From the sequence record NZ_CP024426.1: DNA of 64,000 nucleotides; one strand, 5' to 3'. The position numbers were made by a program, and so were the translations under genes. This stretch comes from a plasmid. Under the pieces are notes generated by a model that was given only the letters and a program-made list of their open reading frames with translations, was not told the DNA's origin and searched no databases. Of the stretch, positions 6,742 through 58,694 are shown piece by piece; the first letter of the stretch is position 1; every line of letters starts with the position of its first letter.

Positions 6742-6763
6742 CCCCGCGCGCAAGGAGCCGACG

Positions 6764-8842: not shown

Positions 8843-8868
8843 GCCGGGCAAAGGCAAGGGGGGACAGG

Positions 8869-18971: not shown

Positions 18972-19208
18972 CCTGGCGCCGCGTCGTCACGGAATTGAGA
19001 AAGATTAGTCATAATAGTCCCTTGCCGGCCGAATCCTCCTGCCCGATAATTGCGCGGAACCCCTTGCAGGTGTGCACCGCCTTGACCTTTCGCCTTGTCC
19101 ATAAGGCCGCCCGTCACAGGGCGGCCGCTTTTGCGTCCGCCGGCGGCTTCCGCGACGGCGCCATGTCGCTGGGCCGGCCCTCTGCCTTTACGTCCGAAAG
19201 ACCCGACC

Positions 19209-22200
19209 ATGCTGGATGAAGACGCCCCCGTCACTCCGCCTGACGCCGTGGGGGTGCTGACCCTGCATGCGGTCCTGGCAGCCAAGGTGAACTTCGCCAG
19301 CGCCCAGAACGGCGTCGCCATCGTCAAGCAGCTCGGCATCGAAAATCCAGGGCCCGACCCGATCCGGGATGTGCGGCTGACGCTCTCGGCCAGTCCCGGC
19401 CTGCTGCGCGACAAGACCTGGGCCATCGACCGCATCGCCCCCGGCACCACGGTGCAGCTGGCCGATCTGGACACGCCCCTGGACACCGCCCTGCTGGGGG
19501 GCCTGGACGAGGCCGAATTCGGCCAGCTGGAATTCCGCCTGACCGCGCAGGACCTGCCCGAGACCACCTCGGCCCACCGGGTCGAGATGCTGGCCCGCGA
19601 CGAATGGGGGGGTCTGGCCGAAATGGACAACATCCTGGCGGCCTTCGTGTCGCCCAACCATCCCGCCGTCGCCCAGATCCTGAAAGAGGCGTCGCGCCTG
19701 CTTGAAGCCGGGGGCTATTCCGGCGCGCTGGACGGCTATCAGTCGGGCGATCCGCTGCGTGCGTGGATGCTGGCGGGCGCCATCTGGTCGGCGGCGACGG
19801 GCTTGGGTCTGTCCTATGCGGTGCCCCCCGCCTCGTTCGAGCAGGCAGGCCAGAAGATCCGCGACCCCGGCCGCGTCCTGGCCGAGGGGCTGGCGACCTG
19901 CCTGGACAGCACGCTGCTGCTGGCCGCCGCCTTCGAGGCCGCGGGGCTGAACACCGCCGTCCTGTTTTCCCAGGGCCATGCCTGGGCCGGGGTCTGGCTG
20001 CAGCGCAAGGACTTTGGCCGCCTGGTCGAACCCGACGTGGTGGCCGTGCGCAAGGCCGTGGCGGCGCGCGAATTCGTGCCGATGGAAACCACGCTGCTGA
20101 CGCGCCGCCCCGCCGTGGGCTTCGAGGAGGCCGTCGATGCCGGCCGCGACCGCCTGTCCGAGGCGCGCGAGGCCGAGTTCATCCAGGCCGTGGACATCAA
20201 CCGCGCCCGCGCCGCCCGCATCCGTCCCCTGGCCAGCCACCGCCCGCAGGACGAGGGGCCGGACGAGCCGGGCACCGCCACCCCCGCCGCCCTGCCCCGC
20301 CCGCTGGACCTGGGCCTCCTGCCGGGCGAGCTGGTGGACGAGACGCCCACCACCGCCATCGGCCGGATCGAGCGCTGGCAGCGCAAGCTGCTGGACCTGT
20401 CGCTGGCCAACCGGCTGCTGAACTTTCGCGAAACCCGCGGCGCGGTGCCGCTGATCTGCCCCGACATTTCGGGGACCGAGGACCGGCTGGCCCATGGCGA
20501 GGTCTTTCGCCTGCTCGCGCTCAAGGACGAACAGGCCGTAGGGGGGCGCGACTTGGCCCCCGAGGACGCGCGGCGGATCGAACTGGACCTGGCCCGCGAC
20601 GCCCTGTCGCGCGGCCAGATCGCGGTGCCGCTGACCGCGCGGGACATGGTCGACCGGCTGACCGAGCTTTACCGCAAGGCCCGCAGCGACCTGGCCGAGG
20701 GCGGCACCAACACGCTCTTCCTGGCCGTGGGTTTCCTGCGCTGGAAACGCCCCGGAGACGACAGCCGGACGCATCGCGCGCCCCTGCTGCTGCTGCCCGC
20801 CCGGCTGGACCGGCGCTCGGCCCAGTCCGAGTTCCGGCTGAGCCAGCTCGAGGACGAGGTGCGCATCAACGCCACCCTGCTGGAGATGCTCAAGCGCGAC
20901 TTCGAACTGCGCATCCCTGAACTCGAGGGAGAGCTGCCGCGCGACGACAGCGGGCTCGACATCGCGCGCCTGCTGGACATCCTGCGCCATCGGGTGCGCG
21001 ACGTGCCCGGCTTCGAGGTGGTCGAGGACTGCGCGCTGTCCACCTTTTCCTTTGCCAAATACCTGATGTGGAAAGACCTGGTGGACCGCACCGACAGCCT
21101 GCGCGAAAGCCGGCTGGTGGCCCATCTGGTCGACAGCCCGACCGAGGTCTTCGCGGGCGCGGCCGTGCCGATGCCGCACCCCCGCGACATCGACCGCAAG
21201 CATGCGCCGGGCGACCTGCTGGCGCCGCTGCCGGCCGACAGCTCGCAGCTTGCGGCGGTGCTGGCCGCGGCCGAGGGGCGCGACTTCGTACTGATCGGCC
21301 CGCCGGGCACCGGCAAAAGCCAGACCATCACCAACATCATCGCCGACCAGCTTGGCCGCGGCCGCACCGTGCTGTTCGTGGCCGAGAAATCGGCGGCGCT
21401 GGACGTGGTCCACCGTCGGCTGGAGCGCCACGGCCTGGGCCATGCGGTGCTGGAACTGCATTCCAGCAAGGCCGACCGCAAAAGCGTCCTGGCCCAGCTT
21501 GGCCGGTCCTGGGACCGCGCCAGCGCGGCCAATGCGCAGGACTGGGTCCGTGTGGCCGAGGATCTGCGCCTGACCCGAGACCAGCTGAACGCCTATGTCG
21601 ATGCGCTGCACCGTCCCAGCACCCAGGGCTTCAGCGTCTATCAGGCGATCGGCCGGGTCGCGGGCGGCACGCCGGGCTTTGCGCTGCGCTTCGACAACAA
21701 GGACTGCCACGATCAGGCCGGATTCCAGCGCCTGCGAACCCTGGCGGCCGATCTGGGCGCGCGCCACCGCATCGTGGCGGGACTTGACCCGCAGGGGCCG
21801 CTGTCGCTGCTGGACCGGGGCGAATGGTCCTTTGGCTGGCAGGACCGTTACCTGGACAGCGCCCGCGCCCTGCGGCGGGCCCGCGCCGCCGCGTCCGAGG
21901 CGGGGCAGGCGCTGGCCGCCCGCCTTGGCCTGACCGGGGCGGACGCCGCCCATCCCGACATTGCCGCGGCCCTGGTCTGGCTTGCCGCCCAGCGGCTGGA
22001 CCAGCCCGCCGTCGCGCCCGAGGCGCTGGCCCTGGCCGAGGCCGGCACCGGCACCGACGCCGCCTTGGCAGCGCTGACCGAGGCGCTGTCGCGCGCGGCC
22101 CAGGCTCGGGCGGCGCTGGCCGCCGACTACCCCGACGAAGGGCTGGCCGACATGCCGCTCGACGCGCTGGACCTGCAATGGCGCGAGGCGCAGGGCAAGT

Positions 22201-25115
22201 CCTGGCCCTTTGCGGGCATGGCGCAGAAAAAGCTGCGCCGGATCCTGCAAAGCTACGCCCGCTCGGGCGAGGCGGACCCGGCGCGCGACCTGCCCGCGCT
22301 GCGCCAGCTTCAGCGCGCCAGACGCGACATCGACGGGTCGGACCTGCGCGGGGTGCCGGGCTTTGCGCAGGAACGCTCGGACCCGGCCCGCATCCGGCAA
22401 GAGCTTGAGGCCGCGCAAGGCTTTCTGGGTCTGGAACGCCACCTGCGGGCGGCCGGACTGCCGGCGTCGGTCCTGGGCGCGCAGCGGGCGGAACTGGCCC
22501 GCGCCTCGGGCGGAGAGATGGCGGGCCTGCTGCGGGCGCTGCGCGACGCCGACCGCGCGACCGAAACGGCGCGCGCGGATTTCGCCGAGCTGGGCGGCGC
22601 CCTGCCCCCGCAGGCCGAGGCGCTGCTGGCCGATCTGGAACCCCTGCAGCACCATTTCAGCGACTGGCTGAAATGGCGCGCGTGTCGCGCCGAGGCCATC
22701 GCCGCCGGGCTGGAGCCGCTGGTCCGCGCCATCGAGGACGGCGCCGCGCTTGCCGACACCGCCTGCGCCTTCGAACAGGCCTACATGGCCTGGTGGCTGC
22801 GCCTGGCGATGGACGCCGAGCCCTGCCTGCGCGGCTTTGCCCATTGGGAGCACGACGCCCTGATCCGCCGGTTCCGCGACCTGGACGACACCTTGGCCAA
22901 CCTCGCCTCGGCCGAGGTGATGCGCCGCTTGGGCAACGACCTGCCCGCGCGTGACAGCGTCCCGCGCAATTCGGAACTGGGCATCCTGCGCCAGCAACTG
23001 GGGCTGCAGCGCCCCTCGCGCGCGATCCGCAGCCTGATCGCCGACATGCCGACGACCTTTGCCCGGCTTGCGCCCTGCGTGCTGATGTCGCCCCTGTCGG
23101 TCGCGCAATACCTGCCCGCGGGCCAGGCGCAGTTCGACCTGGTCATCTTTGACGAGGCCTCGCAGATCTCGACCTGGGATGCCATCGGCGCCATCGCCCG
23201 CGGCCGGCAGGCGATCATCGTGGGCGACCCCAGGCAGTTGCCGCCCACGAACTTCTTCGGGCGCAGCGACGAGGGCGTCGAGGAGGGTGCGGCCCTGGCC
23301 GACCATGAAAGGGACATGCCCTCGATCCTGGACGAGGCGGCGGCGGCGGGCATCCCGACCCACCGCCTGAACTGGCACTATCGCAGCCGGGACGAGGCGC
23401 TGATCGCCTTTTCCAACCACTTCTACTATGACGGGGGGCTTGTCACCTTCCCCTCGCCCGGCGGCGCGGGCGACGCGGTGCGGCTGCACAGGATCGCCGG
23501 CACCTATCAGCGCAGCAAGGGTGCGACCAACCCTGACGAGGCCCGCGCCATCGCGGCCTTCATCCGCAACCGCCTGACGGGCTGGCTGGCCCTGCCCGAA
23601 GCGGCGCGCCCGACGCTGGGGGTCATCACCTTCAACGCCCAGCAGCAGGGGCTGATCCTTGACCTGCTGGACGCCGAGCGCAAGGCCGACCCGGCCCTGG
23701 AATGGTTCTTCGCCGACGAGCGCGAGGAGCCCGTGATCGTCAAGAACCTGGAAAACATCCAGGGCGACGAACGCGACGTGATGCTGTTTTCCGTCACCTT
23801 CGGCCCCGACCAGGCCGGCAAGTTCACCATGAACTTCGGTGCGATGAACAAGGACGGGGGCGAGCGGCGGCTGAACGTGGCGGTGACGCGCGCCCGGGCG
23901 GAACTGCATGTCTTCGCCTCCTTCGGCGCTGACCAGATCGACCTGGGCCGCACCCGCGCGCGGGGCGTGGCCGATCTCAAGGCCTTCCTGGACTTTGCCG
24001 AACGCGGGCCGGTGGCGCTGGCCGCACAGGACAGCGGCTCGGTCGGTCCCGCCGAGTCCCCGTTCGAGGAGGCGGTCCGCGATGCCCTGGCCGCGAAGGG
24101 CTGGCAGGTGCAGACCCAGATCGGCGTCTCGGGCTTTCGCATCGACCTGGGCGTGCGCCATCCCGACCATGCCGGCGTCTGGCTGGCCGGGGTGGAATGC
24201 GACGGGGCACGCTATCATTCATCGGCCACGGCGCGCGACCGCGACCGCATCCGTCAGGCCGTGCTGGAGGGATTGGGCTGGTCCATCCTGCGCGTCTGGT
24301 CCACCGACTGGTTCCGCACCCCGCAGGCCACGGCAGACCGCATCGACACCCGGCTGCGCGAGATCCTGGAGGCCGACCGCGCCCGCCGGGCCGAGGCGGC
24401 GCCCGAGGTCGCGGTCGACCTGCCCGCCCAGCCCGACCTGCCCGCCCAGCCCGACCTGCCAGACCTGCCCGACCTGCCAGACCTTCCCGGCACGGATGAG
24501 GGCCCGGCCGACAGCGTGCCCGGACCGGACGCAGGCCACCCCGCGCCGCCCGCCGACGACGCGTTGCCCGCGACCGATGTCCCCCCTTTGTCCACGCCCC
24601 GGCCCGACCCCGAGCGGTTCTTCGACGCGGATTACACGGCGGACCTGCGGGCGATGATGCGGGACATCGTCGCGGCCGACGGACCCATGCCCGACGCAGC
24701 CCTGGCCCGCAGGATCGCCCAGGCGCATGGCTGGCAGCGGACGGGCGCGCGCATCCAGTCCCGCATCGCGGCGCTGCACGGCGACTTCGACCGGACCGAG
24801 GAAGCCGGGGTCCGCTTTCTGTGGACCCGCGGCGCCGTTCGCGACCGGCTGCCGTTTCGCGGTCTTGGCGAACGGGCGCTGCGCGAGGTGTCGCGGGCCG
24901 AGATCGCCGAGGTGGTGGACCGGAATGCCGACCGGATCGCCGCCGCCCCGGATCCCGACCTGGAGCTGGCGCGGCTGTTGGGCATCGCCCGGCTCAGCAA
25001 GGACGCGCGGGACTATCTGCGGGACTGCCGCGCCTGGCGCGACGAAACCACCCTGCCCCGGCCGGGCGGCACGTCAAAGGCCGGGATCAGCCCTGATAGC
25101 CTCGGCGGCGCTTGA
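19209..25115 (+). CDS. Giant (~1968 aa) SF1 (Upf1/DNA2-like) helicase with a Vsr/DUF559-type endonuclease domain and DUF3320-like C-terminus (DUF4011-helicase family)
   Basis: Walker A GPPGTGKSQTI (~21297-21320). Motif II/III-like FDLVIFDEASQ and IVGDPRQLPPT. Motif VI VAVTRAR. Endonuclease-like GFRIDLGVRH...ECDGARYH block. N-terminal region carries a transglutaminase-like C/H signature (ATCLDS...GHAWAGVW). ORF opens at 19095, but a GC hairpin at 19105-19133 favours the ATG at 19209. Confidence 0.85.
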   Translation: MLDEDAPVTPPDAVGVLTLHAVLAAKVNFASAQNGVAIVKQLGIENPGPDPIRDVRLTLSASPGLLRDKTWAIDRIAPGTTVQLADLDTPLDTALLGGLDEAEFGQLEFRLTAQDLPETTSAHRVEMLARDEWGGLAEMDNILAAFVSPNHPAVAQILKEASRLLEAGGYSGALDGYQSGDPLRAWMLAGAIWSAATGLGLSYAVPPASFEQAGQKIRDPGRVLAEGLATCLDSTLLLAAAFEAAGLNTAVLFSQGHAWAGVWLQRKDFGRLVEPDVVAVRKAVAAREFVPMETTLLTRRPAVGFEEAVDAGRDRLSEAREAEFIQAVDINRARAARIRPLASHRPQDEGPDEPGTATPAALPRPLDLGLLPGELVDETPTTAIGRIERWQRKLLDLSLANRLLNFRETRGAVPLICPDISGTEDRLAHGEVFRLLALKDEQAVGGRDLAPEDARRIELDLARDALSRGQIAVPLTARDMVDRLTELYRKARSDLAEGGTNTLFLAVGFLRWKRPGDDSRTHRAPLLLLPARLDRRSAQSEFRLSQLEDEVRINATLLEMLKRDFELRIPELEGELPRDDSGLDIARLLDILRHRVRDVPGFEVVEDCALSTFSFAKYLMWKDLVDRTDSLRESRLVAHLVDSPTEVFAGAAVPMPHPRDIDRKHAPGDLLAPLPADSSQLAAVLAAAEGRDFVLIGPPGTGKSQTITNIIADQLGRGRTVLFVAEKSAALDVVHRRLERHGLGHAVLELHSSKADRKSVLAQLGRSWDRASAANAQDWVRVAEDLRLTRDQLNAYVDALHRPSTQGFSVYQAIGRVAGGTPGFALRFDNKDCHDQAGFQRLRTLAADLGARHRIVAGLDPQGPLSLLDRGEWSFGWQDRYLDSARALRRARAAASEAGQALAARLGLTGADAAHPDIAAALVWLAAQRLDQPAVAPEALALAEAGTGTDAALAALTEALSRAAQARAALAADYPDEGLADMPLDALDLQWREAQGKSWPFAGMAQKKLRRILQSYARSGEADPARDLPALRQLQRARRDIDGSDLRGVPGFAQERSDPARIRQELEAAQGFLGLERHLRAAGLPASVLGAQRAELARASGGEMAGLLRALRDADRATETARADFAELGGALPPQAEALLADLEPLQHHFSDWLKWRACRAEAIAAGLEPLVRAIEDGAALADTACAFEQAYMAWWLRLAMDAEPCLRGFAHWEHDALIRRFRDLDDTLANLASAEVMRRLGNDLPARDSVPRNSELGILRQQLGLQRPSRAIRSLIADMPTTFARLAPCVLMSPLSVAQYLPAGQAQFDLVIFDEASQISTWDAIGAIARGRQAIIVGDPRQLPPTNFFGRSDEGVEEGAALADHERDMPSILDEAAAAGIPTHRLNWHYRSRDEALIAFSNHFYYDGGLVTFPSPGGAGDAVRLHRIAGTYQRSKGATNPDEARAIAAFIRNRLTGWLALPEAARPTLGVITFNAQQQGLILDLLDAERKADPALEWFFADEREEPVIVKNLENIQGDERDVMLFSVTFGPDQAGKFTMNFGAMNKDGGERRLNVAVTRARAELHVFASFGADQIDLGRTRARGVADLKAFLDFAERGPVALAAQDSGSVGPAESPFEEAVRDALAAKGWQVQTQIGVSGFRIDLGVRHPDHAGVWLAGVECDGARYHSSATARDRDRIRQAVLEGLGWSILRVWSTDWFRTPQATADRIDTRLREILEADRARRAEAAPEVAVDLPAQPDLPAQPDLPDLPDLPDLPGTDEGPADSVPGPDAGHPAPPADDALPATDVPPLSTPRPDPERFFDADYTADLRAMMRDIVAADGPMPDAALARRIAQAHGWQRTGARIQSRIAALHGDFDRTEEAGVRFLWTRGAVRDRLPFRGLGERALREVSRAEIAEVVDRNADRIAAAPDPDLELARLLGIARLSKDARDYLRDCRAWRDETTLPRPGGTSKAGISPDSLGGA
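24418..24483 (+). repeat. In-frame tandem repeat (18 bp x2, then 9 bp x3-4) encoding a (DLPAQP)2(DLP)n linker inside the helicase-nuclease gene
   Basis: cccgcccagcccgacctg duplicated, followed by cc[ac]gacct[gt] units, seen directly. Confidence 0.7.
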
Positions 25116-48267: not shown

Positions 48268-48456
48268 CGCCTGTCCCCCGCTTCTGGTCCGCCCGGGCAA
48301 GGGGCGCGCGGAATTCAACGTCCACGCCACCGCCGGAAGTTCCCCGGACCACGCAAGATCCGGTGGAGCCGGGGAAAACCGGCAACAGCCCCCCGTCATC
48401 GCTGTTTTCAGCAACGGTTTTTCGTGCTATGCTGGTGGGGTTGTTAGGAGGTGCGA

Positions 48457-48564
48457 ATGAAACCCCTGGTTCTTTTCCTGACGTTGACCTTTTCCCTGAT
48501 TGGTGCCCTGGACAGCGGCCCGGCCCACGCCGGACCTTGCAATCCCAACGTCCAACGCTGCTGA
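48457..48564 (+). CDS. 35-aa secreted microprotein precursor MKPLVLFLTLTFSLIGALDSGPAHA|GPCNPNVQRC
   Basis: Perfect SD (TTAGGAGGTgcgaATG). Classic Sec signal with AHA cleavage site. Mature decapeptide with two Cys. Immediately upstream of the giant membrane-protein gene. Confidence 0.55.
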   Translation: MKPLVLFLTLTFSLIGALDSGPAHAGPCNPNVQRC

Positions 48565-48570
48565 ACGACT

Positions 48571-48614
48571 CCGGCGCCGACCCCTGGGGCCGGCGCCCGG
48601 TTTTCCGTATTTGT
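48571..48614 (+). terminator. GC-rich hairpin plus U-rich tract after the microprotein gene (possible partial terminator/attenuator)
   Basis: GGCGCCGACCCC-tg-GGGGCCGGCGCC (1 mismatch) followed by GTTTTCCGTATTTG. Confidence 0.35.
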
Positions 48615-48635: not shown

Positions 48636-51600
48636 ATGGCAGACCCATGGCCGGCCGAGGTGCCCGCGTCCCTGTGGACCTTCAACCAGCTTTCCGCCGA
48701 AGAGGTGGTGCAGGTCCCCATGATGGGCGTCAAATTCGCCTCGGGCTTCTTGTACGCCTTTGCCTTTGGCTGCATTTTCATCGCGGTTTTCGCCTGGCAA
48801 AGATTTCGCATCAAGACGGTGGTGAAATCCCCGTCGCGCGCCCTGACCCAGCTTGGGCCCAATGACCTTGGCGGCCAGGCTGCCCTGATCCGGGCCTATT
48901 TCATCTATGCGGGCTCGATCCTGCTGCTTTATGTCTCGTTGACGTTCTTTGGCAAGCTGCTGGTGCAGATGGCCCGCCTGGTGCCTGCCATCGGCATCGA
49001 CGCCTATGCAGACAAGCTGCGCTTCGACAGCCCGCAATGGCCGCTGATGCTGGCATTCGGCTTTGCAGGCCTGGCGCAGATGCTGCCCCCGGTCGCCGCG
49101 ATCGAAGGCTGGCTGCGGCTGCGCGCCTATCGCGCGGTGGGCATCCCGGTGCGGCTGGAACAGACCATGCGCAACCTGATCGTGACCCTGGAGCGCGCGG
49201 GGCCGAAAGGCGACCTAGAGGAATCCCCGCTGGGCAAGGCGCTGTCATGCTATCGCGCGCAATGGGACGGGATAATCAAAGGCCACGCCTGGGCGGGCGC
49301 CTGGGCGCGGCGGCGCGCGAGCCGCGCGCAGGACCTGGTTTCGCTGTTGTCGCAGCTTGAACTGCTGGTGTCCTGGTCCAAAAGCAAGCGCGGCAGCTGG
49401 CCGGGACACGAGGTGTCCCAGACCGTGCGCGACCTTGAGGAAACCTATGTCCGCGAAAGCGGAGACCTGCTGAACGAATTCCAGCAGCGCATGAGCGAAC
49501 CGCCCGAGATCGACGACAGGCGCCTGTCCGGCACCCGCGAGGCCCGGTTGGACGATTATCTTAACACGACGTTCAGCAAAGCCGAAGGCTTGCGCCATGA
49601 CTTGGTGGGAATCCTTGCGATCTTTCTGGAACGCGACATCGACAGCCCCGACCGCACTGATGACTTCAAGGATCACAGCTATACGGACCCTGCCCTGCAC
49701 GCGCTTCTGATCAAGACCGCGCGGGCGGACAGCGCGGGGACAGGCCCGGAATCGGGGCTGTTCGCCGCCCTGATCGCCGTCTTCGTCCTGTGCGCCGCCG
49801 CGGCTTGGCGGGGACTGCAGGATCCGGTGGGGCAATATGTCGAGCGGACGAACCTTTACGGGATGCTGATCTCGGCGCTGGTGGAAACGCTGCGCCTGGC
49901 TTCCCTGACCTGGCTGCCGCTTCTTGCCGCATTTTCGCTGCGCCAATACCTGTGGGACAACGGCGACTGGGCCCGCGCGCGCTACAGCACCAAGCCCGAT
50001 CACTATGCCGGGCAGATCCTAGTCTGCACGTCGCTTGGCGTTGCGACAGGTGTGCTGGGACTGGTTCTGGTGGCTGCGCTGAAGGCGTTCTTCATTGCCA
50101 CAAACCGCGAGTATTTTGCCGAATTGCTGGCGGGGGGCCCCGCGCCGTTCCTGCTTTACTATCCGACGCAGGCGATCATCCTGCCCGCGCTGATCCCCCT
50201 GGCCATCTATTCCGCCGATCTAAGCAAGACCCCGCACCGCCGGCTGATCTGGGGTGTCGTGGCGGCCCTGGTGATCGGGACGCTATGGCTTGCCCATGCA
50301 ACCTACTGGAACGGGACCGTCCTGATCCGCGACTGCGTGTCCGCGACCGCAATTCTGACCGAGGCCTGCGTCCGCCGGATGGACCTGATAAGCCATCTGG
50401 CCCTGATGACACTGACCTTTCTGGCGGTCGGCATCTTTGGCGACCTGCCCGAGCGGCGCCGCGCGAATGTCCGTGAACGCGAGCGGACCGGGACAGGCGT
50501 CGAAAGCGCCGCCGGTCTGGCATTGCTGGCGATGCTGTTCCCGATGCTGGTCTTGGCGCCAACGTCAGCCCGCGCCGAGCCCGAGCCGGTTCGCATCGGG
50601 TTTCGCTTCGACATCGCGCCATTTTCCTATCGGAATGAAGCAAGCGGCCCGCGCCAGTTCCACGGCTATCTGGCCGATATGTGCTTTGACATCTTCGACG
50701 GCTATCCCGCCTACAAGGTCGAGGCCGTGCCCGTCGGGGCGAAAGACCGCTTCGACATGTTCAACGCGGGTAACGTGGATCTCTTGTGCGACGCCGTTAC
50801 CATGCGGTTTTCCGAACGCGACCGATCCGAAAAGGGGATCTATTCACCCATCGTCTTCGTATCGGGCGTGTCCTATCTGGAAACGGGCAACCGCAATGTC
50901 GGGGCGGTCGCTCTGGGCTTCGTGCTGAACGCGACGGCGCGGGACGTTGCGCTCAAGACCTGCCATGTGGACCAGTTTCGGGTCTTCATGCCGGATACGC
51001 GGGCGCTGCTGGTGGAACGCTGCAACCTGCGCTGGCAGGCGGCATTGCTGGCCCAGCGTTTGCTGAACGAACCAAGCATCGTGCAAAGCCCCGCAAGCCA
51101 GATCGCGGTCACGCAGGTCGATCCACGCCGGCGCGCATCCCTTGATGCTGTCATGGAGTCTTGGCGTCGCCTGCACGAGGACTGGGAAACGCTTCACCAA
51201 AGGGCCGAAAATCTGAACACGATGGTCCAGGACCAGAACATCACGCGGTTGAGCACCGCCACCACGGCACTGATCAAAACCGTGCTGAGTGACGGGAACG
51301 GTATCCAGACCTGCCTGGACAGCCTAGGGAGGAACGCTGCGGTCTGCGCCGAGGCCAGCAAAGCCCTGTCCGACCCGCGTTGCGGCGGGATCGCCGACAA
51401 GAACGCCTCTGCCAAGGCACCGGCCGATGCGAACATCCCCTTTGAGCAGCGCATATGGGACGATTACAGTTTTTGCCCCATGTCCGACCACGGCGCGCTG
51501 ATCAAGTGGTTCTGCACATCCGGCAAGGACCTGCGCCGAGTCTATCTGGGCGACCGCGAGCTGATCGTCGCCAAGCGCGACGCCTGGGCGCGCGACATCG

Positions 51601-51920
51601 GTTCATGCCCGGTGCAGCGGGCCGAGGGGGCCGAGTTCCTGTCCTATGAGCCTTATGCATTTCTGGTTCAAAGGAAAAAGCCCGCCCTGGCGGCCTTCGT
51701 CCAGCAGCGGGTCTATGAGCTGTTTTCGAACCGCGCCCAGATGATCGCGCGCTTCAACGCCAGCTTTTCCAGGAAGGATGCTTCCGGCAGCGGCCAGCCG
51801 GATGTTCGCATGTCCGTGCCTCTGGCCTATCTGTTCCTGCTGAACGCCGTCGAGAACGACACGCTGTTCCTGCCGAACGCCGATCTGTCGCCGGAAGCGG
51901 CGGCGGGGAACCGCCCTTAG
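48636..51920 (+). CDS. 1094-aa polytopic membrane protein with a C-terminal periplasmic, Cys-rich solute-binding-protein (SBP family 3-like) domain; family unknown
   Basis: GGAGG SD 5 nt upstream. Roughly 10 predicted TM helices in aa 1-645. Internal signal-like helix (aa 625-646). Then RIGFRFDIAPFSY…YEPYAFLVQRKKP, which resembles bilobed polar amino-acid SBPs, interrupted by a Cys-rich insert. Confidence 0.85.
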   Translation: MADPWPAEVPASLWTFNQLSAEEVVQVPMMGVKFASGFLYAFAFGCIFIAVFAWQRFRIKTVVKSPSRALTQLGPNDLGGQAALIRAYFIYAGSILLLYVSLTFFGKLLVQMARLVPAIGIDAYADKLRFDSPQWPLMLAFGFAGLAQMLPPVAAIEGWLRLRAYRAVGIPVRLEQTMRNLIVTLERAGPKGDLEESPLGKALSCYRAQWDGIIKGHAWAGAWARRRASRAQDLVSLLSQLELLVSWSKSKRGSWPGHEVSQTVRDLEETYVRESGDLLNEFQQRMSEPPEIDDRRLSGTREARLDDYLNTTFSKAEGLRHDLVGILAIFLERDIDSPDRTDDFKDHSYTDPALHALLIKTARADSAGTGPESGLFAALIAVFVLCAAAAWRGLQDPVGQYVERTNLYGMLISALVETLRLASLTWLPLLAAFSLRQYLWDNGDWARARYSTKPDHYAGQILVCTSLGVATGVLGLVLVAALKAFFIATNREYFAELLAGGPAPFLLYYPTQAIILPALIPLAIYSADLSKTPHRRLIWGVVAALVIGTLWLAHATYWNGTVLIRDCVSATAILTEACVRRMDLISHLALMTLTFLAVGIFGDLPERRRANVRERERTGTGVESAAGLALLAMLFPMLVLAPTSARAEPEPVRIGFRFDIAPFSYRNEASGPRQFHGYLADMCFDIFDGYPAYKVEAVPVGAKDRFDMFNAGNVDLLCDAVTMRFSERDRSEKGIYSPIVFVSGVSYLETGNRNVGAVALGFVLNATARDVALKTCHVDQFRVFMPDTRALLVERCNLRWQAALLAQRLLNEPSIVQSPASQIAVTQVDPRRRASLDAVMESWRRLHEDWETLHQRAENLNTMVQDQNITRLSTATTALIKTVLSDGNGIQTCLDSLGRNAAVCAEASKALSDPRCGGIADKNASAKAPADANIPFEQRIWDDYSFCPMSDHGALIKWFCTSGKDLRRVYLGDRELIVAKRDAWARDIGSCPVQRAEGAEFLSYEPYAFLVQRKKPALAAFVQQRVYELFSNRAQMIARFNASFSRKDASGSGQPDVRMSVPLAYLFLLNAVENDTLFLPNADLSPEAAAGNRP

Positions 51921-51957
51921 CCGACCCATCCGCAACCCTTGCAGGCAGGAGCCGCCC

Positions 51958-54900
51958 ATGAAGCTGCAGATCCACGGCCAAAAGCAGGTCCCGGTCGACG
52001 AGACGCCGGCAGCAAACGGGGCCGTTACCGTCGAGGTCAAGGACAGGGTCACCGTGACCGGCCTCCGCGGCGATGCCCTGCCGGTGCAGATCGACCTGCC
52101 GCCGGACCATGTGCTGGAACTGCAGATGGAGGGCGAGGGCGCCCCCCGCCTGCTGCTGCGCGGGGACGAGGCGCAGGCCCTGCTGGCGGGCGGCGCGGCG
52201 ATGACCCGCGACGGCGCGGGCGACGATCTGCTGGTGCTGCCGACCCATCTGCAGCTTGACCCGCCCGCGCGCGGTCGCCGCGGTCTGGACCGGGGACTGC
52301 TGGCCTGGGCGGTTAAGACCGTCCAGGTGCTCAAGGTCGATGGCAAGCCCGCCGAGGCAGCCCGCCAGCTTGAGGATCAGAACCCCGCGCTGGGGCTGAA
52401 CCGCTGGCTGCCCGACGGCACGCTGGAGCCCCTTGCCCCCGGCACCGCAGCCGAGGGCAAGACCTGGCTTTTGTTCCTGCACGGCACGGCCTCTTCGACG
52501 CTGGAGGGCTTTGGCAAGCTGATCGGGGCGCAGCCGGCGATCTGGCGCCAGCTGCATGCGACCTACCCCGGACGGGTGCTGGCCTTCGACCACCGCACCC
52601 TGACCGAGGATCCGATCCAGAACGCCACGACGCTGCTGGCGGCGCTGCCTCCGGACATCACTCTGCACCTTGTCAGCCACAGCCGCGGCGGGCTGGTGGG
52701 CGAATTGCTGGCCCGGCCGCAACTGGTCGCGCCGGGCACCGACACGGTGTTCGACCCGGCCGAGGTGCAGGAACTGGCCGAACGGGACCGCCCTGCGGCC
52801 GAGGAACTGGGCCAGGCGCTGGTCGCTAGCGGGGTGCGGGTCACGCGCTTTGTCCGGGTGGCCTGCCCGGCGCGCGGCACCGACCTTGCCGGTGGCCGGC
52901 TGGACCGCTGGCTGAACCTGCTGTTCAACCTGGTGCAGCAAACGATCGACCCCCTGGCCATCGACGATGCTGTGAAGCGCAAGGTCGAGGGGCTGCGGCG
53001 GCTGGCCTTGGCGGCCTCGGCCGGGAAAGACAACCCCGACGCCCTGCCCGGCATCGCGGCCATGGCGCCGGATTCGTCCCCGCTGCTGGCCATCCTGAAC
53101 CGCCGCCCCGCCAACCCCGCCCCGCCCCAGGACGAAGCCCCCGCACAGGACGGGCTGGTCGTCATCGGCGGCGACGCCGAGCCGGCGGGCGTCGTCAAGC
53201 GCCTGCTGGTCTGGCTGGCCGACGCGCTGCTCCAGGGAGAGAACGACCTGGTGGTGGAAACCGGCTCGGTCGGGGGCGGGACGCCCCGCGCCGTGGCCCC
53301 GCCCCTGGTGCTGGATCGCGGGCCGCAGGTCGATCATTCGCGCTTCTTCGCCAACGACCGGACCGCGCAGGCGATGCTGCTGGGATTGCGCGACCCCGCC
53401 CTGCTGAGAGAGGGCTCGGTCCCCTCGCTGCCCGAGCAGATGCGCGAGGCCGAGGCCAGGCTGCGCAGCACGATCCGCTCGGCCGATGCCGCGCCTTTTC
53501 TGTCGCGGGGCCGGGGCACGCCACTGGCCGTTATACTGCCTGGGATCACCGGCAGCCACCTTGCCGTGGGGAAGAATCGCGTCTGGGTCAGCCCTTTCGG
53601 CATCTGCACGCGGGGCGTGAAGTCCCTGGCGCTCGGCAAGACGCAGATCACGGAAGACGGGGTGGTCGGGCTTTACTACGGCGCGCTTTGCGATCATCTG
53701 GCGCGCAGCCACGAGGTCGTGGCCATGCCTTATGACTGGCGCCTGTCCCTGCAGGACCTGGGCGCCCGCCTGGCGGCAAGGCTGACGGCCCTGCTGGCCC
53801 AGGACGACAGCCGCCCGCTTCACATCGTCGGCCATTCGATGGGCGGGCTGGTCGCGCGCATGGCGCTGGCCCAGTCGCCCGAGCTGATGCGCGGCTTTCT
53901 GGCCCATCCCGAATCGCGCTTGCTGATGCTGGGGACGCCGAACGGCGGGTCCTGGCAGATGGGGCTGGCGCTGTTGGGACGGACCCGGACGGTCAAGGCG
54001 CTGGCCCTGCTCAGCCCGCATGACGACATCGGCGACATCACCGCCATCCTGCGCGAATGGCCCGGCGCGGTGCAGCTTTTGCCGCCCGAGCTGCTGGTCC
54101 CGGAACCCTGGGCGGGATTTGACGCCGAAGCGCCCTCGGCCCAGGCTTTGGCCTTGGCGGCGCAGGCCCAGGTCCTGCTGCGGGACAAGGCGGGCATTCC
54201 GAAAGGCCGCAGCCTTTACGTCGCCGGGATGGGCGATACCTGCGCCGAGCTTCTTGTCGTCGATGGCGCGTTGAGCATGCGGGTTTCGCCCGAGGGCGAC
54301 GGCACCGTCTTGTGGCGCACCGGCATCCCCGACGGGGTCCCGGTCTGGTATGCGCCGTCGGAACACGGCGACCTGTGCAAGGACGCCTATCTGCATCCGG
54401 CAATCGCCGACCTGCTGCTGCGGGGAACGACCACCCTGCTGTCGGACCGGCCGGGCCGGCGCGGGGCGACTGCCGCAGTGGCGGCCACCCAGGTCGTCCC
54501 GGCCACGGAGGTTCTGCCCCTGATCCCTTCGGGCCCGCAGCTGCTGGCGATGGCCATGGGGGCCAGCCCGCCCGCGCTGCTGGACCGCTCGGCCCCCAGC
54601 CCCGAGGTCCGCGTGACCGTGGTCCACGGCAACCTGGAGTTCGCGCGCCACCCGATTCTGGTCGGCCACAACCTGGGCGATCCGATCATGGGGGCCGAGG
54701 CGGCGCTGGACCGCAGCCTGAACGGCAGGCTCAGCCGGCGCAATGCGCGCGGCCTGCACCCCGGCATCATCGAAAGCTGGGATGTGCATGTGGAACCCGT
54801 CACCACGACCGATGCGGGCGGCGCGGCGGGCACGGGCCTGCGGGGCGGCATCGTGGTGGGGCTGGGCGTCGCCTCGGCACTGACCACGGGCAGCCTGATG

Positions 54901-57327
54901 CGGACCATCCGCTGCGGTCTGCTGGCCTATGCCGACGCCGTCCAGCAGACCGACACGGACCGGCGCGCCCTGGCCGTTTCGGTGGTGTTGCTGGGCAGCG
55001 GCAGCGGCATGATCGCGGTCGCCGACAGCGTCAACGCCATCCTGAACGCGGTCGACCAGGCCAACCGCCTGCTGGAAACCGAGCCTGCCGGCGCGGTCCC
55101 GGGCGACGAGCCCCTGCGCTTTACCGAGATCGAGATCATCGAGTCGGTCGAACAGATCGCCGTCACCGCCTGGCACTCGGCGCGCGGCCGCATCACCCGC
55201 CTGCCCGGCCGCTTCGCCCTGGCCGGCCGGCTGGAGCAGGGGCGTGGCGGCTGGCGCCGGACCGGCCCCGAAACCGCGCCCGACTGGTGGATGGAGGTGT
55301 CGATCACCTCGGACCCGCCCGAGCCGGCCGCGCCCGGCCAGCCCGGCCGCGAAGGCCCGCTGCGCTATCTGCTGGTGGACGGGCGCGCCCGGGTCGAGGC
55401 CAAGGTGGTCGCCACCAGCCGCCGGCTGGTCGGGCACTATGTCTCGATGATCCCGGACAGCGTGGGCATGGCGGACCCGCGGGGCCTGTCGCCGGGGCGG
55501 ACGCTGTTTGAACTGCTGTGGCCCGCAGAGCTGAAGCAGCACAGCATCGAGGACCGCAACCTGCGCTTGGTTCTGGACCGCGAGACGGCTGCGATCCCGT
55601 GGGAGATGCTGGACGACCGCCGCCCCGCGCGCGACGGCTTCGGCGAAGAGGTCCTGATGGCGACCAAGCCCCCGTCCGTGCGCTACGGGGTGCTGCGCCA
55701 GCTGTTGGCGCAACGCGAGCGTCCGCTTCGGCCTCTGGGCGGCGGCAACCGGCAGGCGCTGGTCATCGGCGATCCGCGCGGGGGCGGCAGCACGCTGCCC
55801 ACCCTGCCCGGCGCCCGGGCCGAGGCCGAAGCGGTCGCAGGTCTGCTGGAGGCGGCAGGCTATGGCGTGACGCGCATGATCGGCGACACCGCCACCCCGG
55901 ACCAGGTGATCGCCGCGCTGTTCTCGCGCGTGTGGGACGTGATCCATGTGGCCAGCCACGGCGTCCTTGACTGGCAACCCACCCCCGACCAGCCGCCGCG
56001 CACCGGGATCGTGCTGGGCGCGCCGCCGCTGGACGTGATCGAATCCGGCATCCTGGCGCAACTGCCCGAGCCGCCGGCGCTGGCCTTTCTGAACTGTTGC
56101 CACCTGGGCAGCATCCCCGAAAGCGACCGTCACCTGCGCCGCGACCGGCCGGCCCTGGCCGCAAGCCTGGCGGTCGAACTGATCGAGGCGGGCTGCCCCG
56201 CCGTGGTCGCCTGCGGCTGGGCCGTCGACGACGGCTCCGCCATGCGCTTTGCCCGCACGCTTTACACCGATCTTTGCGGCGGCCAGAACTTTGGCGCCGC
56301 CGTGCGCCATGCGCGCGAGGTGGCCCATGACGGCGCCACCACCGACAACACCTGGGGCGCCTATCAGTGCTATGGGCATCCGGGCTTTGCGCTGTCGCTT
56401 GCGCCCAGGGGCTGGACCGAGGCCACGCCGGACGCCGCCTCTCCGTCCGAGGCGGTGGCGGTTCTGCAGCGCCTGAGCACCTGCGCCACCGCCCCGCCTG
56501 CGCCGCTGTCCGGCGATCCCGCCGGGACCCAGCGCCTGCGCCAGGACTTCTTGGCCACGCGCGAGGCCGATTTGATCCGCCTGGGCAAGTTCGAGGAGGA
56601 CATCCGCAGGAACGGCTGGGCCGACCGCTCGGATGTGGCAAGCGCGCTTGGCGATGCCTATGCCGCCTGCGGCGACATCACCAGCGCCGTCGATGCCTAT
56701 CGCCGCGCGGCCATGGCCGAGACGCTGACCCTGCCGGTGCGCGCGCTGCAGGACCGATTTGCGCTGCCTTTGCGCCTGCCGAAGGATGACGCCAACGAAC
56801 TGCGCGCCGCGGTCCAGGCGATGGGCCTGCTGAACACCGCCTGCGGCCCCAGCCCGCAGCGGCTGGAACTGATCGCGGGCCTGCACCTGCGCCTGGCCGC
56901 CCTGGAAAGCCAGGCCAAGCCCCGGAACGCCGCGCTGGACCAGGCCCTGGACGCGCTGAACGAGGCGCATGATCTGGCCACCCAAGGCGGCAGCGTTGCC
57001 GCGGCCGGGCGTATCGCGCTGCGGCGGCTGCTGGCGGCCATCCTGCGCGGCAAGAATGCGGCCGACACGGCAACGGCCGCCGGGGCGGCGCTGGCGGCCT
57101 TGCCACGGGACGACCCGCAGCGCCCGCTGGCGCTGTTCCTGCAGGCGCTGGCGCAGGGCGACACGAATGCAATCGCCGCCCTGCCCCGGGACGACGCCCT
57201 TCAAGCCCTGGACTCCGACACGCTGTGGACCCTGGCCGAGGCGGCGCGGCTGGCCGGGGACTGCCTGACCGGATCCTTGGGCGATGCGGCCAAGGCCTGC
57301 GCCCGCGACCTGTCGATGCTGATCTAG
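51958..57327 (+). CDS. 1789-aa cytoplasmic multidomain protein with two lipase-like alpha/beta hydrolase domains, a CHAT (caspase-like) protease domain and a helical/TPR-like C-terminus
   Basis: Hydrolase 1: LFLHGTASS oxyanion motif and nucleophile SHSRGG (Ser242, nt 52681-52683). Hydrolase 2: PGITGSH and GHSMGG (Ser627, nt 53836-53838). CHAT: HVASHG (His1334, nt 55957-55959) and FLNCCHLG (Cys1381, nt 56098-56100). AGGAG SD. No signal peptide. Confidence 0.85.
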   Translation: MKLQIHGQKQVPVDETPAANGAVTVEVKDRVTVTGLRGDALPVQIDLPPDHVLELQMEGEGAPRLLLRGDEAQALLAGGAAMTRDGAGDDLLVLPTHLQLDPPARGRRGLDRGLLAWAVKTVQVLKVDGKPAEAARQLEDQNPALGLNRWLPDGTLEPLAPGTAAEGKTWLLFLHGTASSTLEGFGKLIGAQPAIWRQLHATYPGRVLAFDHRTLTEDPIQNATTLLAALPPDITLHLVSHSRGGLVGELLARPQLVAPGTDTVFDPAEVQELAERDRPAAEELGQALVASGVRVTRFVRVACPARGTDLAGGRLDRWLNLLFNLVQQTIDPLAIDDAVKRKVEGLRRLALAASAGKDNPDALPGIAAMAPDSSPLLAILNRRPANPAPPQDEAPAQDGLVVIGGDAEPAGVVKRLLVWLADALLQGENDLVVETGSVGGGTPRAVAPPLVLDRGPQVDHSRFFANDRTAQAMLLGLRDPALLREGSVPSLPEQMREAEARLRSTIRSADAAPFLSRGRGTPLAVILPGITGSHLAVGKNRVWVSPFGICTRGVKSLALGKTQITEDGVVGLYYGALCDHLARSHEVVAMPYDWRLSLQDLGARLAARLTALLAQDDSRPLHIVGHSMGGLVARMALAQSPELMRGFLAHPESRLLMLGTPNGGSWQMGLALLGRTRTVKALALLSPHDDIGDITAILREWPGAVQLLPPELLVPEPWAGFDAEAPSAQALALAAQAQVLLRDKAGIPKGRSLYVAGMGDTCAELLVVDGALSMRVSPEGDGTVLWRTGIPDGVPVWYAPSEHGDLCKDAYLHPAIADLLLRGTTTLLSDRPGRRGATAAVAATQVVPATEVLPLIPSGPQLLAMAMGASPPALLDRSAPSPEVRVTVVHGNLEFARHPILVGHNLGDPIMGAEAALDRSLNGRLSRRNARGLHPGIIESWDVHVEPVTTTDAGGAAGTGLRGGIVVGLGVASALTTGSLMRTIRCGLLAYADAVQQTDTDRRALAVSVVLLGSGSGMIAVADSVNAILNAVDQANRLLETEPAGAVPGDEPLRFTEIEIIESVEQIAVTAWHSARGRITRLPGRFALAGRLEQGRGGWRRTGPETAPDWWMEVSITSDPPEPAAPGQPGREGPLRYLLVDGRARVEAKVVATSRRLVGHYVSMIPDSVGMADPRGLSPGRTLFELLWPAELKQHSIEDRNLRLVLDRETAAIPWEMLDDRRPARDGFGEEVLMATKPPSVRYGVLRQLLAQRERPLRPLGGGNRQALVIGDPRGGGSTLPTLPGARAEAEAVAGLLEAAGYGVTRMIGDTATPDQVIAALFSRVWDVIHVASHGVLDWQPTPDQPPRTGIVLGAPPLDVIESGILAQLPEPPALAFLNCCHLGSIPESDRHLRRDRPALAASLAVELIEAGCPAVVACGWAVDDGSAMRFARTLYTDLCGGQNFGAAVRHAREVAHDGATTDNTWGAYQCYGHPGFALSLAPRGWTEATPDAASPSEAVAVLQRLSTCATAPPAPLSGDPAGTQRLRQDFLATREADLIRLGKFEEDIRRNGWADRSDVASALGDAYAACGDITSAVDAYRRAAMAETLTLPVRALQDRFALPLRLPKDDANELRAAVQAMGLLNTACGPSPQRLELIAGLHLRLAALESQAKPRNAALDQALDALNEAHDLATQGGSVAAAGRIALRRLLAAILRGKNAADTATAAGAALAALPRDDPQRPLALFLQALAQGDTNAIAALPRDDALQALDSDTLWTLAEAARLAGDCLTGSLGDAAKACARDLSMLI

Positions 57328-58694
57328 GAGGGCGCGCTGTCGCCCAGGCGATCGTACCAGCGCCGGGCATGAAGGCGCAGCGCGTCGGCCTGCGCGGGCA
57401 CCGGCCAGGTCCGGGTGGCGGGTGCGGTGCGGGGCGGCAGGCACAGCAGCGCCGCCCCGACCGAGGTCCCCGTGGCCGAGGTCGCGGTTTCCACCCCCTC
57501 GCCGCGCAGCGCGGCCAGCATGTCGAGAAAATCGCCATTGCGGGCGAAGGGCCCCTCGACGATGACCGGGCCCTGCGCGCCGACCAGGCGTAGGCAACTG
57601 TCGGTCATCAGCGCCAGATACCAGGACAGGGCGGCCATGCGCTGGCAGTCGCCCGCAGGCGGTCGGGTCCACGCCATTGTGCGGCCACGGAATGGGCCGG
57701 AACCCGGCTCGACCGCCGGCAGGATCATCAGCCCGGCGTCCAGCGCGGCCGCGCGGTCGCGGTCGGACGGCTCGGCGGCGCTGCCGGCGCGAATGATCTC
57801 GAACTCGCGCCCGCCCATGAACCGGGCCGAGGGCGTGGGCGCCCCCAGCGCATTCACATTGACCAGCACGTCGCGGCCTGGGTCCAGCGCGCCGGGCCGG
57901 CCGCCCACCGCCATCGCCACCACCCAGGTGCCGGTCGAGACCACCGAGAACGCCCCCTGCCGCCCCAGCACATGCGCGAAAAGCGAGGCGTTGCTGTCAT
58001 GGATGCCGACCGCGACCGGCGTGCCGGCCGGGATGCCGGTGGCCTGCGCGACATCGGGCAGCAGGCCGCCCAGCACCTCGTTCGCGCGGCGCGCCGGGGC
58101 GATGCGGCCGGTCAGGTCCAGCCGTTCGACCAGATCCGAGAACCGTCCCGACCAGGGGTTCCAAAGATCGGTGTGGCAGCCCAGCGAGGTCACGTCGCTG
58201 GCGCGTTCCCCCGTCAGCCGCCAGCCCCAGTATTGCGGATAGGTCACGACATCGGCGACGTGCCCCGCAACATCGGGGTCCGACAGCAGCCAATGCAGTT
58301 GCGCGCCCAGGTTCAGCCCCATGGGCAGCCGGGGCGAGCCGGTCTGCGCGAAATCGGGCCGGATCGCGTCATAGGCAGCGGCCAGAGTGTCGGGGCCGGG
58401 GTGTTCGTAGTCCAGCATCGGCAGCGCCCGCCCCTGCCCCTCCAGCAGCACGGCCGAGGCGCCATGCGTCGTCACCGAGATCGCATCGACGCCGTGCCGG
58501 GCATGGAAATCGGCCAGGTGGTGCAGAAAGAACTGCCAATGCCCCTCAAGGTCGAAATGCGGCCAGGGGGGGCCGGGCAGGACGCGGTTCGGGCGGGTGA
58601 CGACGGCGATCTCGGCCAGGGTCTCGGCCTCGACCAGCGCCAGCTTGGCATTGGTCTTGCCGATGTCGATGACGGCGATGCGGGCGGGGGTCAT
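57324..58694 (-). CDS. FGGY-family carbohydrate kinase (rhamnulokinase-like)
   Basis: N-terminal [15 protein letters not shown] and FGGY motifs. Located in the rhamnose cluster. Start at MTPARIAV. Confidence 0.8.

Follow-up and report, generated by a model that had tools for sequence, protein, structure and literature searches.

The window analysed here is a 64,000-nucleotide (nt) stretch of plasmid DNA (sequence record NZ_CP024426.1), and our subject is a giant gene within it that encodes two lipase-type hydrolases and a CHAT protease in one polypeptide. Over 9 kb, the window is 98.3–98.8% identical at the nt level to three Paracoccus yeei plasmids (174–482 kb). On those plasmids the giant protein is WP_080623266.1, annotated as "CHAT domain-containing protein", and the gene directly upstream of it, hereafter the partner gene, is labelled "transporter substrate-binding domain-containing protein". 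The giant protein is also 98% identical to a metagenome cluster. A small peptide open reading frame (ORF) lies 5' of the partner gene, and the next gene 3' of the giant is a convergent FGGY kinase gene. The coordinates of all features are collected in Table 1.

The giant gene and its modules

The ATG of the giant ORF lies 6 nt downstream of an AGGAG (51947–51951), and the guanine-plus-cytosine (GC) content of the frame by codon position is 0.76/0.52/0.89. This fits the pattern of a 70% GC genome, which identifies the + strand as coding. An antisense ORF of 1972 amino acids (aa; 51754–57672, − strand) spans the whole giant; its GC by codon position (0.88/0.54/0.74) peaks at position 1, and it was therefore rejected as a high-GC artefact. 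The giant protein has no signal peptide. Comparison of the gene with its counterpart on L090, a syntenic P. yeei-like contig, gave a synonymous divergence (dS) of 0.035 and a nonsynonymous divergence (dN) of 0.0059. The resulting dN/dS of 0.17, from this one strain pair, indicates purifying selection. A scan for sigma-70 promoters across 48–58 kb of the window found nothing.

The protein consists of six modules: a β-rich N-terminus, hydrolase 1, hydrolase 2, a macro-fold domain, a CHAT domain and a TPR solenoid. Structural assignments draw on two AlphaFold2 models, each made with 42 homologues, of aa 1–1150 (predicted local distance difference test, pLDDT, 83; predicted template-modelling score, pTM, 0.71) and of aa 1100–1789 (pLDDT 86). 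A preliminary description of this DNA, made from the sequence alone, had read six motifs in the ORF; coordinates, GC by codon position and Pfam bear out both the ORF and the motifs. The motif residues are invariant or almost so in 105 relatives, and this near-invariance, together with Pfam scores above cut-off, places the motifs beyond chance. That description had also listed two lipase-type hydrolases, a CHAT domain with a caspase-like His/Cys dyad and a TPR-like C-terminus of 300 aa. All of these stand, the hydrolases on Pfam matches to DUF7379 and LCAT, the model fold and phospholipase structural neighbours. The β-rich N-terminus and the macro-fold domain were missing from its list.

The N-terminal domain is the least conserved part of the giant, with a column conservation of 0.36–0.43 over aa 1–165. 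It has no Pfam match, and profile and structure searches found no family or distinct fold for it.

Hydrolase 1 matches Pfam DUF7379 at 126.5 bits (cut-off 33). The order of strands and helices in the model fits an α/β-hydrolase, as does the order of the catalytic residues. The oxyanion residues are His175-Gly176, and all 105 relatives retain these together with Ser242, Arg243, Gly244, Gly245, Asp406, Asp430 and His460. The preliminary description had proposed that the S-x-S-x-G elbow of this domain might be degenerate. The alignment contradicts this: the first elbow position, 240, is Ser in 83 sequences, Thr in 19, Gly in 2 and Ala in 1, so that Ser or Thr occupies it in 102 of the 105 and [ST]-H-S-R-G-G is the signature of the family. 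Additionally, comparing the family profile with family I.5 lipases of Geobacillus gave a weak match (E ~0.1) at AHSQGG and ATPHDGTTL; the lipase motif NDGIVNT came up solely in another, non-significant segment (score −1.1). This alignment points to Ser242-Asp430-His460 as the triad. Because the triad is invariant throughout the 105 relatives, we rejected hydrolase 1 as a degenerate pseudo-enzyme.

Hydrolase 2 matches Pfam LCAT above the gathering score (31.1 bits, cut-off 21; aa 584–671), with weaker PGAP1 and DUF676 matches on the elbow of the LCAT region, while an NCBIfam search of the giant gave α/β-hydrolase matches at noise level only. It has an LCAT-like fold and a conserved Ser-Asp-His set. 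Asp781 and His803 are invariant among relatives. In contrast, the position of Ser627 is Gly in 11 of the 105 (P0053, P0055, P0059, P0060, P0068, P0073, P0079, P0083, P0087, P0090 and P0092), a subclade whose elbow reads AHGMGG (AHGEGG in P0087) and which keeps Asp781, His803 and the whole hydrolase 1 triad. Thus it is the nucleophile of hydrolase 2, not that of hydrolase 1, that is lost among relatives. In the window giant both triads are intact. The nearest solved structures to the hydrolase part are phospholipases A: LPLA2, the type VI secretion system (T6SS) toxin Tle4, and PlaB.

Between hydrolase 2 and CHAT, aa ~880–1095 adopt a macro fold of the Peptidase_M17_N type. Gly903-His904, Glu914, Gly968 and Gly970 are invariant; Gly1013 is invariant in alignments of 30 and 42 sequences and almost so in that of 105. 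The invariant Gly-His, Glu and Gly-x-Gly positions suggest a candidate pocket. Pfam PF02789 (Peptidase_M17_N) does not match the window segment; it matches the segments of 29 of 46 relatives at E ≤1 (best 9.5e-6), and one short-form relative exceeds the cut-off (28.7 versus 23.4 bits).

The CHAT domain scores 108.7 bits in Pfam (cut-off 24; 5e-31; aa 1179–1473). The best Protein Data Bank (PDB) match, both by Foldseek and by profile, is the SAVED-CHAT structure 8tl0, whose catalytic residues are His375 and Cys422 (10.1101/2023.06.23.546230). In the profile alignment His1334 falls on His375, and the second Cys of FLNCCHLG, Cys1381, falls on Cys422. His1334-Gly1335 and Asn1379-Cys1380-Cys1381 are invariant in relatives. 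The alignment therefore refines the earlier assignment of the dyad, and the nucleophile is most likely Cys1381 rather than Cys1380. Alignment required the family profile, as the CHAT segment alone found no matches among PDB sequences.

The C-terminal solenoid is predicted to be all-helical at high confidence (pLDDT mostly >90) and matches TPR proteins. TPR-S was reportedly defined in 2020 by Burroughs and Aravind, who are said to have predicted a TPR scaffold recognising NAD+-derived signals. Pfam found no PF20308 (TPR-S) in the window solenoid at E ≤1, single-TPR matches being sub-threshold (E ~0.02), and none of the closest clade (P0001–P0017) carries PF20308. A profile comparison by hhalign of the solenoid of the window clade with that of a TPR-S-positive clade gave a probability of 99.7% (E 2e-25, 190 columns). 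By this alignment, homology with the relatives' TPR-S ("sensor") region extends over the first ~200 solenoid residues, while the last ~90 aa do not align and are clade-specific.

Table 1. Positions of the features discussed, in the window unless another contig is named
Feature	Position (nt)	Strand	Details
Small peptide ORF	48457–48564	+	35 aa; ~70 nt 5' of partner gene
Terminator-like GC-rich hairpin and T-run	48584–48604	+	Consensus scan only; between peptide ORF and partner gene
Partner gene	48636–51920	+	1094 aa; 37-nt gap to giant
Hypervariable tract inside partner gene	~48795–51805	+	43–83% nt identity to L090
Giant ORF	51958–57327	+	ATG start; 1789 aa
N-terminal β-rich domain	51958–52452	+	aa 1–165; secondary structure of model
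Hydrolase 1 (Pfam DUF7379), lipase-type α/β-hydrolase	52453–53502	+	aa ~166–515
Motif LFLHGTASS			aa 172–180; hydrolase 1
Motif VSHSRGG			aa 239–245; hydrolase 1; contains Ser242
Hydrolase 1, inferred triad	52681–52683; 53245–53247; 53335–53337	+	Ser242; Asp430; His460
Hydrolase 2, phospholipase-type α/β-hydrolase like LCAT/LPLA2/Tle4	53509–54537	+	
Motif PGITGSH			aa 528–534; hydrolase 2
Motif GHSMGG			aa 625–630; hydrolase 2; contains Ser627
Hydrolase 2, inferred triad	53836–53838; 54298–54300; 54364–54366	+	Ser627; Asp781; His803
Macro-fold domain, Peptidase_M17_N type	54595–55242	+	aa ~880–1095
CHAT (clan CD, caspase-like) protease domain	55492–56376	+	aa 1179–1473
Motif VIHVASHG			aa 1328–1335; CHAT
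Motif FLNCCHLG			aa 1377–1384; CHAT
CHAT dyad	55957–55959; 56098–56100	+	His1334; most probably Cys1381
TPR solenoid, all-helical	56425–57324	+	aa ~1490–1789
Peptide ORF, L001	6578–6685		
Peptide ORF, L088	9797–9907		
Peptide ORF, L089	9798–9911		
Peptide ORF, L090	9821–9928		
Peptide ORF, L091	9770–9886		
Peptide ORF, L093	~6720–6857		
Lipase/protease gene near peptide-receptor pair, L088	15071–16978		
Lipase/protease gene near peptide-receptor pair, L093	184–3033		
Lipase/protease gene near peptide-receptor pair, L089	1152–6392		
Lipase/protease genes near peptide-receptor pair, L091	116–5083; 16877–20194		

Relatives and their gene neighbourhoods

By its domain content and alignments, the window giant is a member of a family of DUF7379/CHAT giants (PF24096, PF02450, PF12770 and PF20308). 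It aligns collinearly with more than 100 protein clusters at 32–58% identity over 85–100% of its length, and family members are 1750–1830 aa long with the same architecture. More than 1000 clusters have this architecture, and genomes of at least 593 species contain a gene for a relative. Their distribution is patchy and takes in about ten phyla, covering Alpha-, Beta-, Gamma- and Deltaproteobacteria, Acidobacteriota, Nitrospirota, Verrucomicrobiota, Bacteroidota, Planctomycetota, Chloroflexota and Actinomycetota. The only labels these proteins bear are "CHAT domain-containing" or "DUF7379 domain-containing" protein. Literature searches on "DUF7379", and on "TPR-S" with "CHAT", found no papers, and the family is "known" only as catalogued entries.

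An extra TIR_2 domain occurs in 16 of 120 homologues, among the matches listed. To describe the neighbourhood, we took the ORF immediately upstream on the same strand at 55 loci, using simple ORF calling. It encodes a Peptidase_C14 caspase at 20 of these loci, a Peptidase_C11 at four and a TIR_2 protein at three; Tle1-like, patatin, HD and pYEATS genes occur once each, the Tle1-like gene adjoining the upstream side of the Paenirhodobacter homologue. At single loci of relatives the neighbours are TIR, DUF4062, CAP12-PCTIR_TIR and TPR-S/MAP3K_TRAF_bd genes.

Searching with the macro-fold segment alone returned 755 representatives at E ≤1e-10, many of them proteins of 890–1010 aa that begin with the macro-fold domain. 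Pfam analysis of nine of the representatives found seven without a lipase domain: five contain only an M17_N-like domain, CHAT and TPR-S, one lacks a TPR-S match, and one is a 1236-aa protein with ~270 unassigned N-terminal residues. These lipase-less forms indicate that macro-CHAT-TPR-S is the core of the protein and that the two lipases are an N-terminal addition, or effector module. The short macro-CHAT-TPR-S entries are P0194, P0232, P0245, P0261, P0272, P0237 and P0260, some of which could be metagenome fragments. The recognition of the macro-fold domain, the macro-CHAT-TPR-S core and the reversal of which hydrolase is dispensable are new.

The upstream peptide and partner genes

The preliminary description had passed over both the large named family and the conserved peptide and receptor genes upstream of the giant. 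The partner protein has ~9–10 predicted transmembrane (TM) helices within aa 34–640, as judged by hydropathy and counts of Lys and Arg, with a ~216-aa loop (aa 157–372) predicted to be cytoplasmic. Its C-terminal ~450 aa are predicted to be periplasmic and contain 10 Cys; they match Pfam SBP_bac_3, a type 2 periplasmic-binding domain, at 27.4 bits (cut-off 26.4). A partner gene 46% identical to that of the window occurs in Paracoccus sp. DMF, where, at another genomic site, it overlaps the giant homologue by 4 nt; several metagenome contigs apparently bear both genes. The partner family comprises 73 clusters, found only in Paracoccus and Rhizobiaceae. We rejected the idea that this TM and substrate-binding protein generally accompanies the giant: only one of 86 loci of the wider giant family, that of Paracoccus sp. 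DMF, has it, and it is therefore clade-specific. In the Paracoccus clade the usual caspase or TIR partner is replaced by a conserved secreted mini-peptide and a hypervariable predicted periplasmic receptor, a further new element.

The interior of the partner gene is divergent between the window and L090, whereas the flanks and the giant are 98–100% identical and the drop is confined to the partner gene. Here dS is 0.76 and dN 0.26, against a dS of 0.020 and dN of 0.0026 for the flanking BrkB gene and a dS of 0.033 and dN of 0.0051 for the FGGY kinase gene. GC in the tract is 0.63–0.65, versus 0.72 in the giant. On this allele comparison, which covers one strain pair, the hypervariable tract is an allelic replacement tract.

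The small ORF, preceded by AGGAGG at 48446–48451, encodes a predicted Sec-type signal peptide, MKPLVLFLTLTFSLIGALDSGPAHA, whose cleavage motif is A-x-A; after the predicted cleavage site comes a 10-residue C-x6-C mature peptide, GPCNPNVQRC. An equivalent ORF lies 61–114 nt 5' of the partner gene at all seven distinct loci compared (the window, L090, L001, L088, L089, L091 and L093). These ORFs have 31–45 codons (35–38 at six of the seven loci). The consensus of the mini-peptide is G-P-C-N-P-N-V/I-Q-R-C, and the mature peptides at the other loci read GVCDPNLQRC, GPCDPNIQRC, GPCDRSVATC, GSPCNPNIQNCP, GSPCNSNIQNCP and AGPCNPDVQRC. As a control, the pattern was run against 29,527 small ORFs from 93 loci and matched only six of the seven peptide sites plus the duplicate loci L002 and L092; the seventh site, L093, was picked up by a looser screen. 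Additionally, a gene caller predicts the 35-aa peptide gene in L090. The peptide ORF does not appear in the PLSDB gene table of the P. yeei plasmid, a table that is incomplete. Between the window and L090, 2 of the 10 residues of the mature peptide differ, and these are the only amino-acid changes in the small ORF, while the signal peptide carries one synonymous change only. The terminator-like hairpin that follows the peptide ORF is kept in L090 with one indel. Its role may be attenuation, or the setting of a high ratio of peptide to receptor expression.

Elsewhere, in Rhizobium, Sinorhizobium, Mesorhizobium and a metagenome contig, the peptide-receptor pair adjoins other lipase or protease genes. 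These encode a GDSL+C14 fusion, a Lipase_3+S8 fusion, a Trypsin_2 protein, a 1655-aa CHAT protein and a patatin, and several peptidoglycan hydrolases also lie near the pair. On L088, which is apparently a repABC-type Rhizobium replicon, Cap15_CD_rec, Prok-JAB and ThiF genes (7801–9588), resembling accessory genes of the cyclic-oligonucleotide-based antiphage signalling system (CBASS), lie directly 5' of the partner homologue.

At a distance from these genes, the window contains a 2009-aa ORF (19086–25115, + strand) with DUF4011, AAA_11/AAA_12 (superfamily 1 helicase), MTES_1575 restriction-endonuclease-like and DUF3320 domains. Large helicase-nucleases of this kind are often found among defence genes.

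Interpretation and comparison with known systems

We consider the chances about even that the giant is a cytoplasmic conflict-system effector, of the immunity or programmed-death type, acting as a regulated protease and phospholipase. On this model a sensor-protease core of macro-fold domain, CHAT and TPR-S-type solenoid would carry the β-rich domain and two phospholipase-type hydrolases fused at its N-terminus. At rest, CHAT would be held inactive by the solenoid, possibly together with the macro-fold domain. Most relatives would probably respond to an NAD+ metabolite made by TIR or to a cue from an invader; in the Paracoccus clade the trigger might be an input from the upstream membrane receptor. 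Activation of CHAT, probably via oligomerisation as in SAVED-CHAT, would lead it to cut a specific substrate, which could be the giant itself (freeing or unmasking the lipases) or a partner protein; in relatives it could also be the C14 caspase encoded next door. The phospholipases, unmasked by cleavage or by a conformational change, would then attack membrane lipid and kill or arrest the cell.

We infer each functional step, including trigger, cleavage, lipase substrate and cell death, from the invariant catalytic residues, phospholipase A structural neighbours, modularity, C14/TIR context and purifying selection described above, from the plasmid location in P. yeei and patchy spread over many phyla, and from precedents. 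SAVED-CHAT specifically cleaves and activates a C14 "PCaspase" (10.1101/2023.06.23.546230), and in VMAP systems a caspase-superfamily domain is always accompanied by an α/β-hydrolase gene (PMC7159879, Kaur et al. 2020). In Thoeris, TIR-derived signals are sensed by a macro domain in type II systems and by a TPR domain in type VIII; the type VIII effectors bear a TPR domain for which Burroughs and Aravind had predicted a part in TIR signalling (10.64898/2025.12.03.692087).

Several observations weigh against this interpretation. Our literature search returned no experiment on any family member, and the only PADLOC match is a weak, CHAT-level one to BovA. A phmmer search of 526 window ORFs with five TIR and two C14 seeds, a search of limited sensitivity, found no TIR or C14 gene, and the immediate neighbours of the giant are metabolic genes; the locus is therefore not an obvious defence island. 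Additionally, the window copy falls below the Pfam thresholds for TPR-S and M17_N, and the last ~90 aa of its solenoid are clade-specific. Loss of Ser627 in 11 of 105 relatives indicates that catalysis by hydrolase 2 is not universally needed.

That last observation would also suit a different division of labour, in which the protease is the executioner, through CHAT alone or via a caspase cascade, and the hydrolases are membrane anchors, processors of a ligand or signal, or regulated pseudo-enzymes. The Gly-627 subclade retains Asp781 and His803, the lipase-less macro-CHAT-TPR-S form exists and is common, and Kaur et al. treat α/β-hydrolase and caspase as an obligate pair rather than independent effectors (PMC7159879). 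Yet none of the 105 relatives departs from the hydrolase 1 triad, both triads are intact in the window giant, genuine phospholipases, the toxin Tle4 among them, are the structural neighbours, and the CHAT proteases studied to date (SAVED-CHAT) are narrow-specificity initiators; we regard this alternative as quite unlikely. Export of the giant, or of its lipase half, to competitors in the manner of Tle phospholipases, with the partner serving export or immunity, is very improbable. The Tle1-like gene beside the Paenirhodobacter homologue and the peptidoglycan hydrolases among which Rhizobiaceae partner homologues lie would fit such a toxin. However, the giant has no signal peptide, Pfam found no secretion-system or toxin-delivery domain in it or in the scanned neighbour genes, and contexts of TPR-S, CHAT and TIR are what intracellular sensors typically show. 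Moreover, what lies 3' of the giant is the convergent FGGY kinase gene rather than a small immunity-like gene.

The upstream genes raise an alternative of another kind, in which decapeptide, hypervariable receptor and giant form one peptide-pherotype or allorecognition switch, serving kin discrimination or quorum-gated death and not phage sensing. The receptor would read self versus non-self peptide, or the loss of peptide, in the periplasm and thereby control the CHAT-lipase executioner. Consistent with this, the peptide ORF is present at all seven partner loci compared and nowhere else in the 93 loci, the receptor interior has been swapped for a divergent allele between flanks that are ~98.5% identical, and the mature peptide differs between the same strains while the signal peptide change is synonymous. 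The partner gene also directly adjoins or overlaps the giant, the peptide-receptor pair again lies beside lipase or protease genes in distant lineages, and only this clade has the final third of the giant's solenoid. On the other side, binding and signalling by the receptor are predictions from sequence, Pfam recognises no cytoplasmic output domain in it, and the high dS of the single allele pair points to old-allele recombination and by itself is no proof of diversifying selection. The partner is absent from 85 of 86 loci of the giant's relatives and so cannot be the ancestral input of the giant. We judge a switch of this kind unlikely. A fuller version would have disulfide-cyclised GPCNPNVQRC bound by the hypervariable domain of a 10-TM receptor that gates the protease-lipase executioner, the same module having been independently coupled to GDSL+C14 and Lipase_3+S8 fusions in Rhizobiaceae; taken as a joint claim, this three-gene death switch is rather improbable.

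The architecture of the giant unites a caspase-like protease, phospholipases and a macro/TPR nucleotide-sensor scaffold, activities that are central to eukaryotic cell death and immunity. It raises the questions of whether bacterial CHAT proteases license lipases, what the TPR-S solenoid senses when a TIR gene is missing, and whether an intracellular death effector can be under the control of a mini-peptide that the cell secretes and a polymorphic receptor in the periplasm. If such control is real, regulated bacterial cell death would extend from phage sensing to peptide-based self/non-self recognition, and the three-gene switch would parallel in bacteria the HET/NLR allorecognition by lipase and protease known from fungi. 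The window giant is a practical entry point, since all its catalytic residues are intact and P. yeei is culturable and clinically isolated.

Within the DUF7379/CHAT giants, the Paracoccus clade stands apart in having no Pfam-detectable TPR-S and a different upstream partner. Among characterised proteins, SAVED-CHAT of a type III-B CRISPR system (Steens et al., PDB 8tl0) resembles the giant in CHAT fold, profile and His/Cys dyad. Its PCaspase lies three genes downstream, and many giant relatives likewise have a C14 caspase next door. Unlike SAVED-CHAT, the giant has no SAVED domain by Pfam, its sensor is TPR plus macro fold, its lipases are fused, and no CRISPR, CD-NTase or C14 gene was found in the window. 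The lack of a Pfam SAVED match and the metabolic neighbours also separate it from systems based on SAVED and oligonucleotide cyclases. TPR-CHAT (Csx29, of the type III-E Craspase) similarly joins a TPR solenoid and CHAT in one chain, and the giant may be likened to it as a narrow-specificity protease switched on by a sensor. In Csx29, however, the TPR part is N-terminal whereas in the giant it is C-terminal, there is no Cas7-11 partner at the window locus, and the two sequences show no significant match.

We also compared the giant with three Thoeris effectors: that of type II, which has a Macro domain, ThsE of type IV, which is caspase-like, and ThsI of type VIII, which contains TPRs. Relatives of the giant are fused to or lie beside TIR, as in Thoeris, but the seed search found no TIR gene in the window, no listed Thoeris type has the giant's architecture, and the macro fold of the giant is closest to the non-catalytic N-domain of M17 aminopeptidases, which is not known as an ADP-ribose binder. 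Borvo (BovA), reportedly a single-gene CHAT defence system described by Millman et al. in 2022, shares the CHAT domain. We rejected membership of Borvo, as the PADLOC match (E 9e-6, 22.9 bits, aa 1287–1460) covers only part of CHAT (profile positions 508–670 of 711) and BovA lacks the lipase, macro and TPR-S architecture. As the defining features of each of these systems were tested and not found, the giant is not a Borvo, SAVED-CHAT, Craspase or listed Thoeris protein.

For the hydrolase part, LPLA2/LCAT and T6SS Tle4 are the best structural and profile matches, and the GHSMGG, GDG (Asp) and HGD (His) motifs are kept. Those enzymes are secreted or lysosomal single-domain proteins, whereas in the giant the corresponding domain lies within a cytoplasmic chain of many domains and is duplicated in kind, a DUF7379 domain standing beside it. 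The pairing of activities is closest to that of the VMAP (MoxR-vWA) ternary systems, where a caspase-superfamily peptidase and an α/β-hydrolase form an obligate combination (PMC7159879). The window locus differs in having no MoxR, vWA or VMAP genes, and the giant fuses both activities to a TPR-S-type sensor within a single protein.

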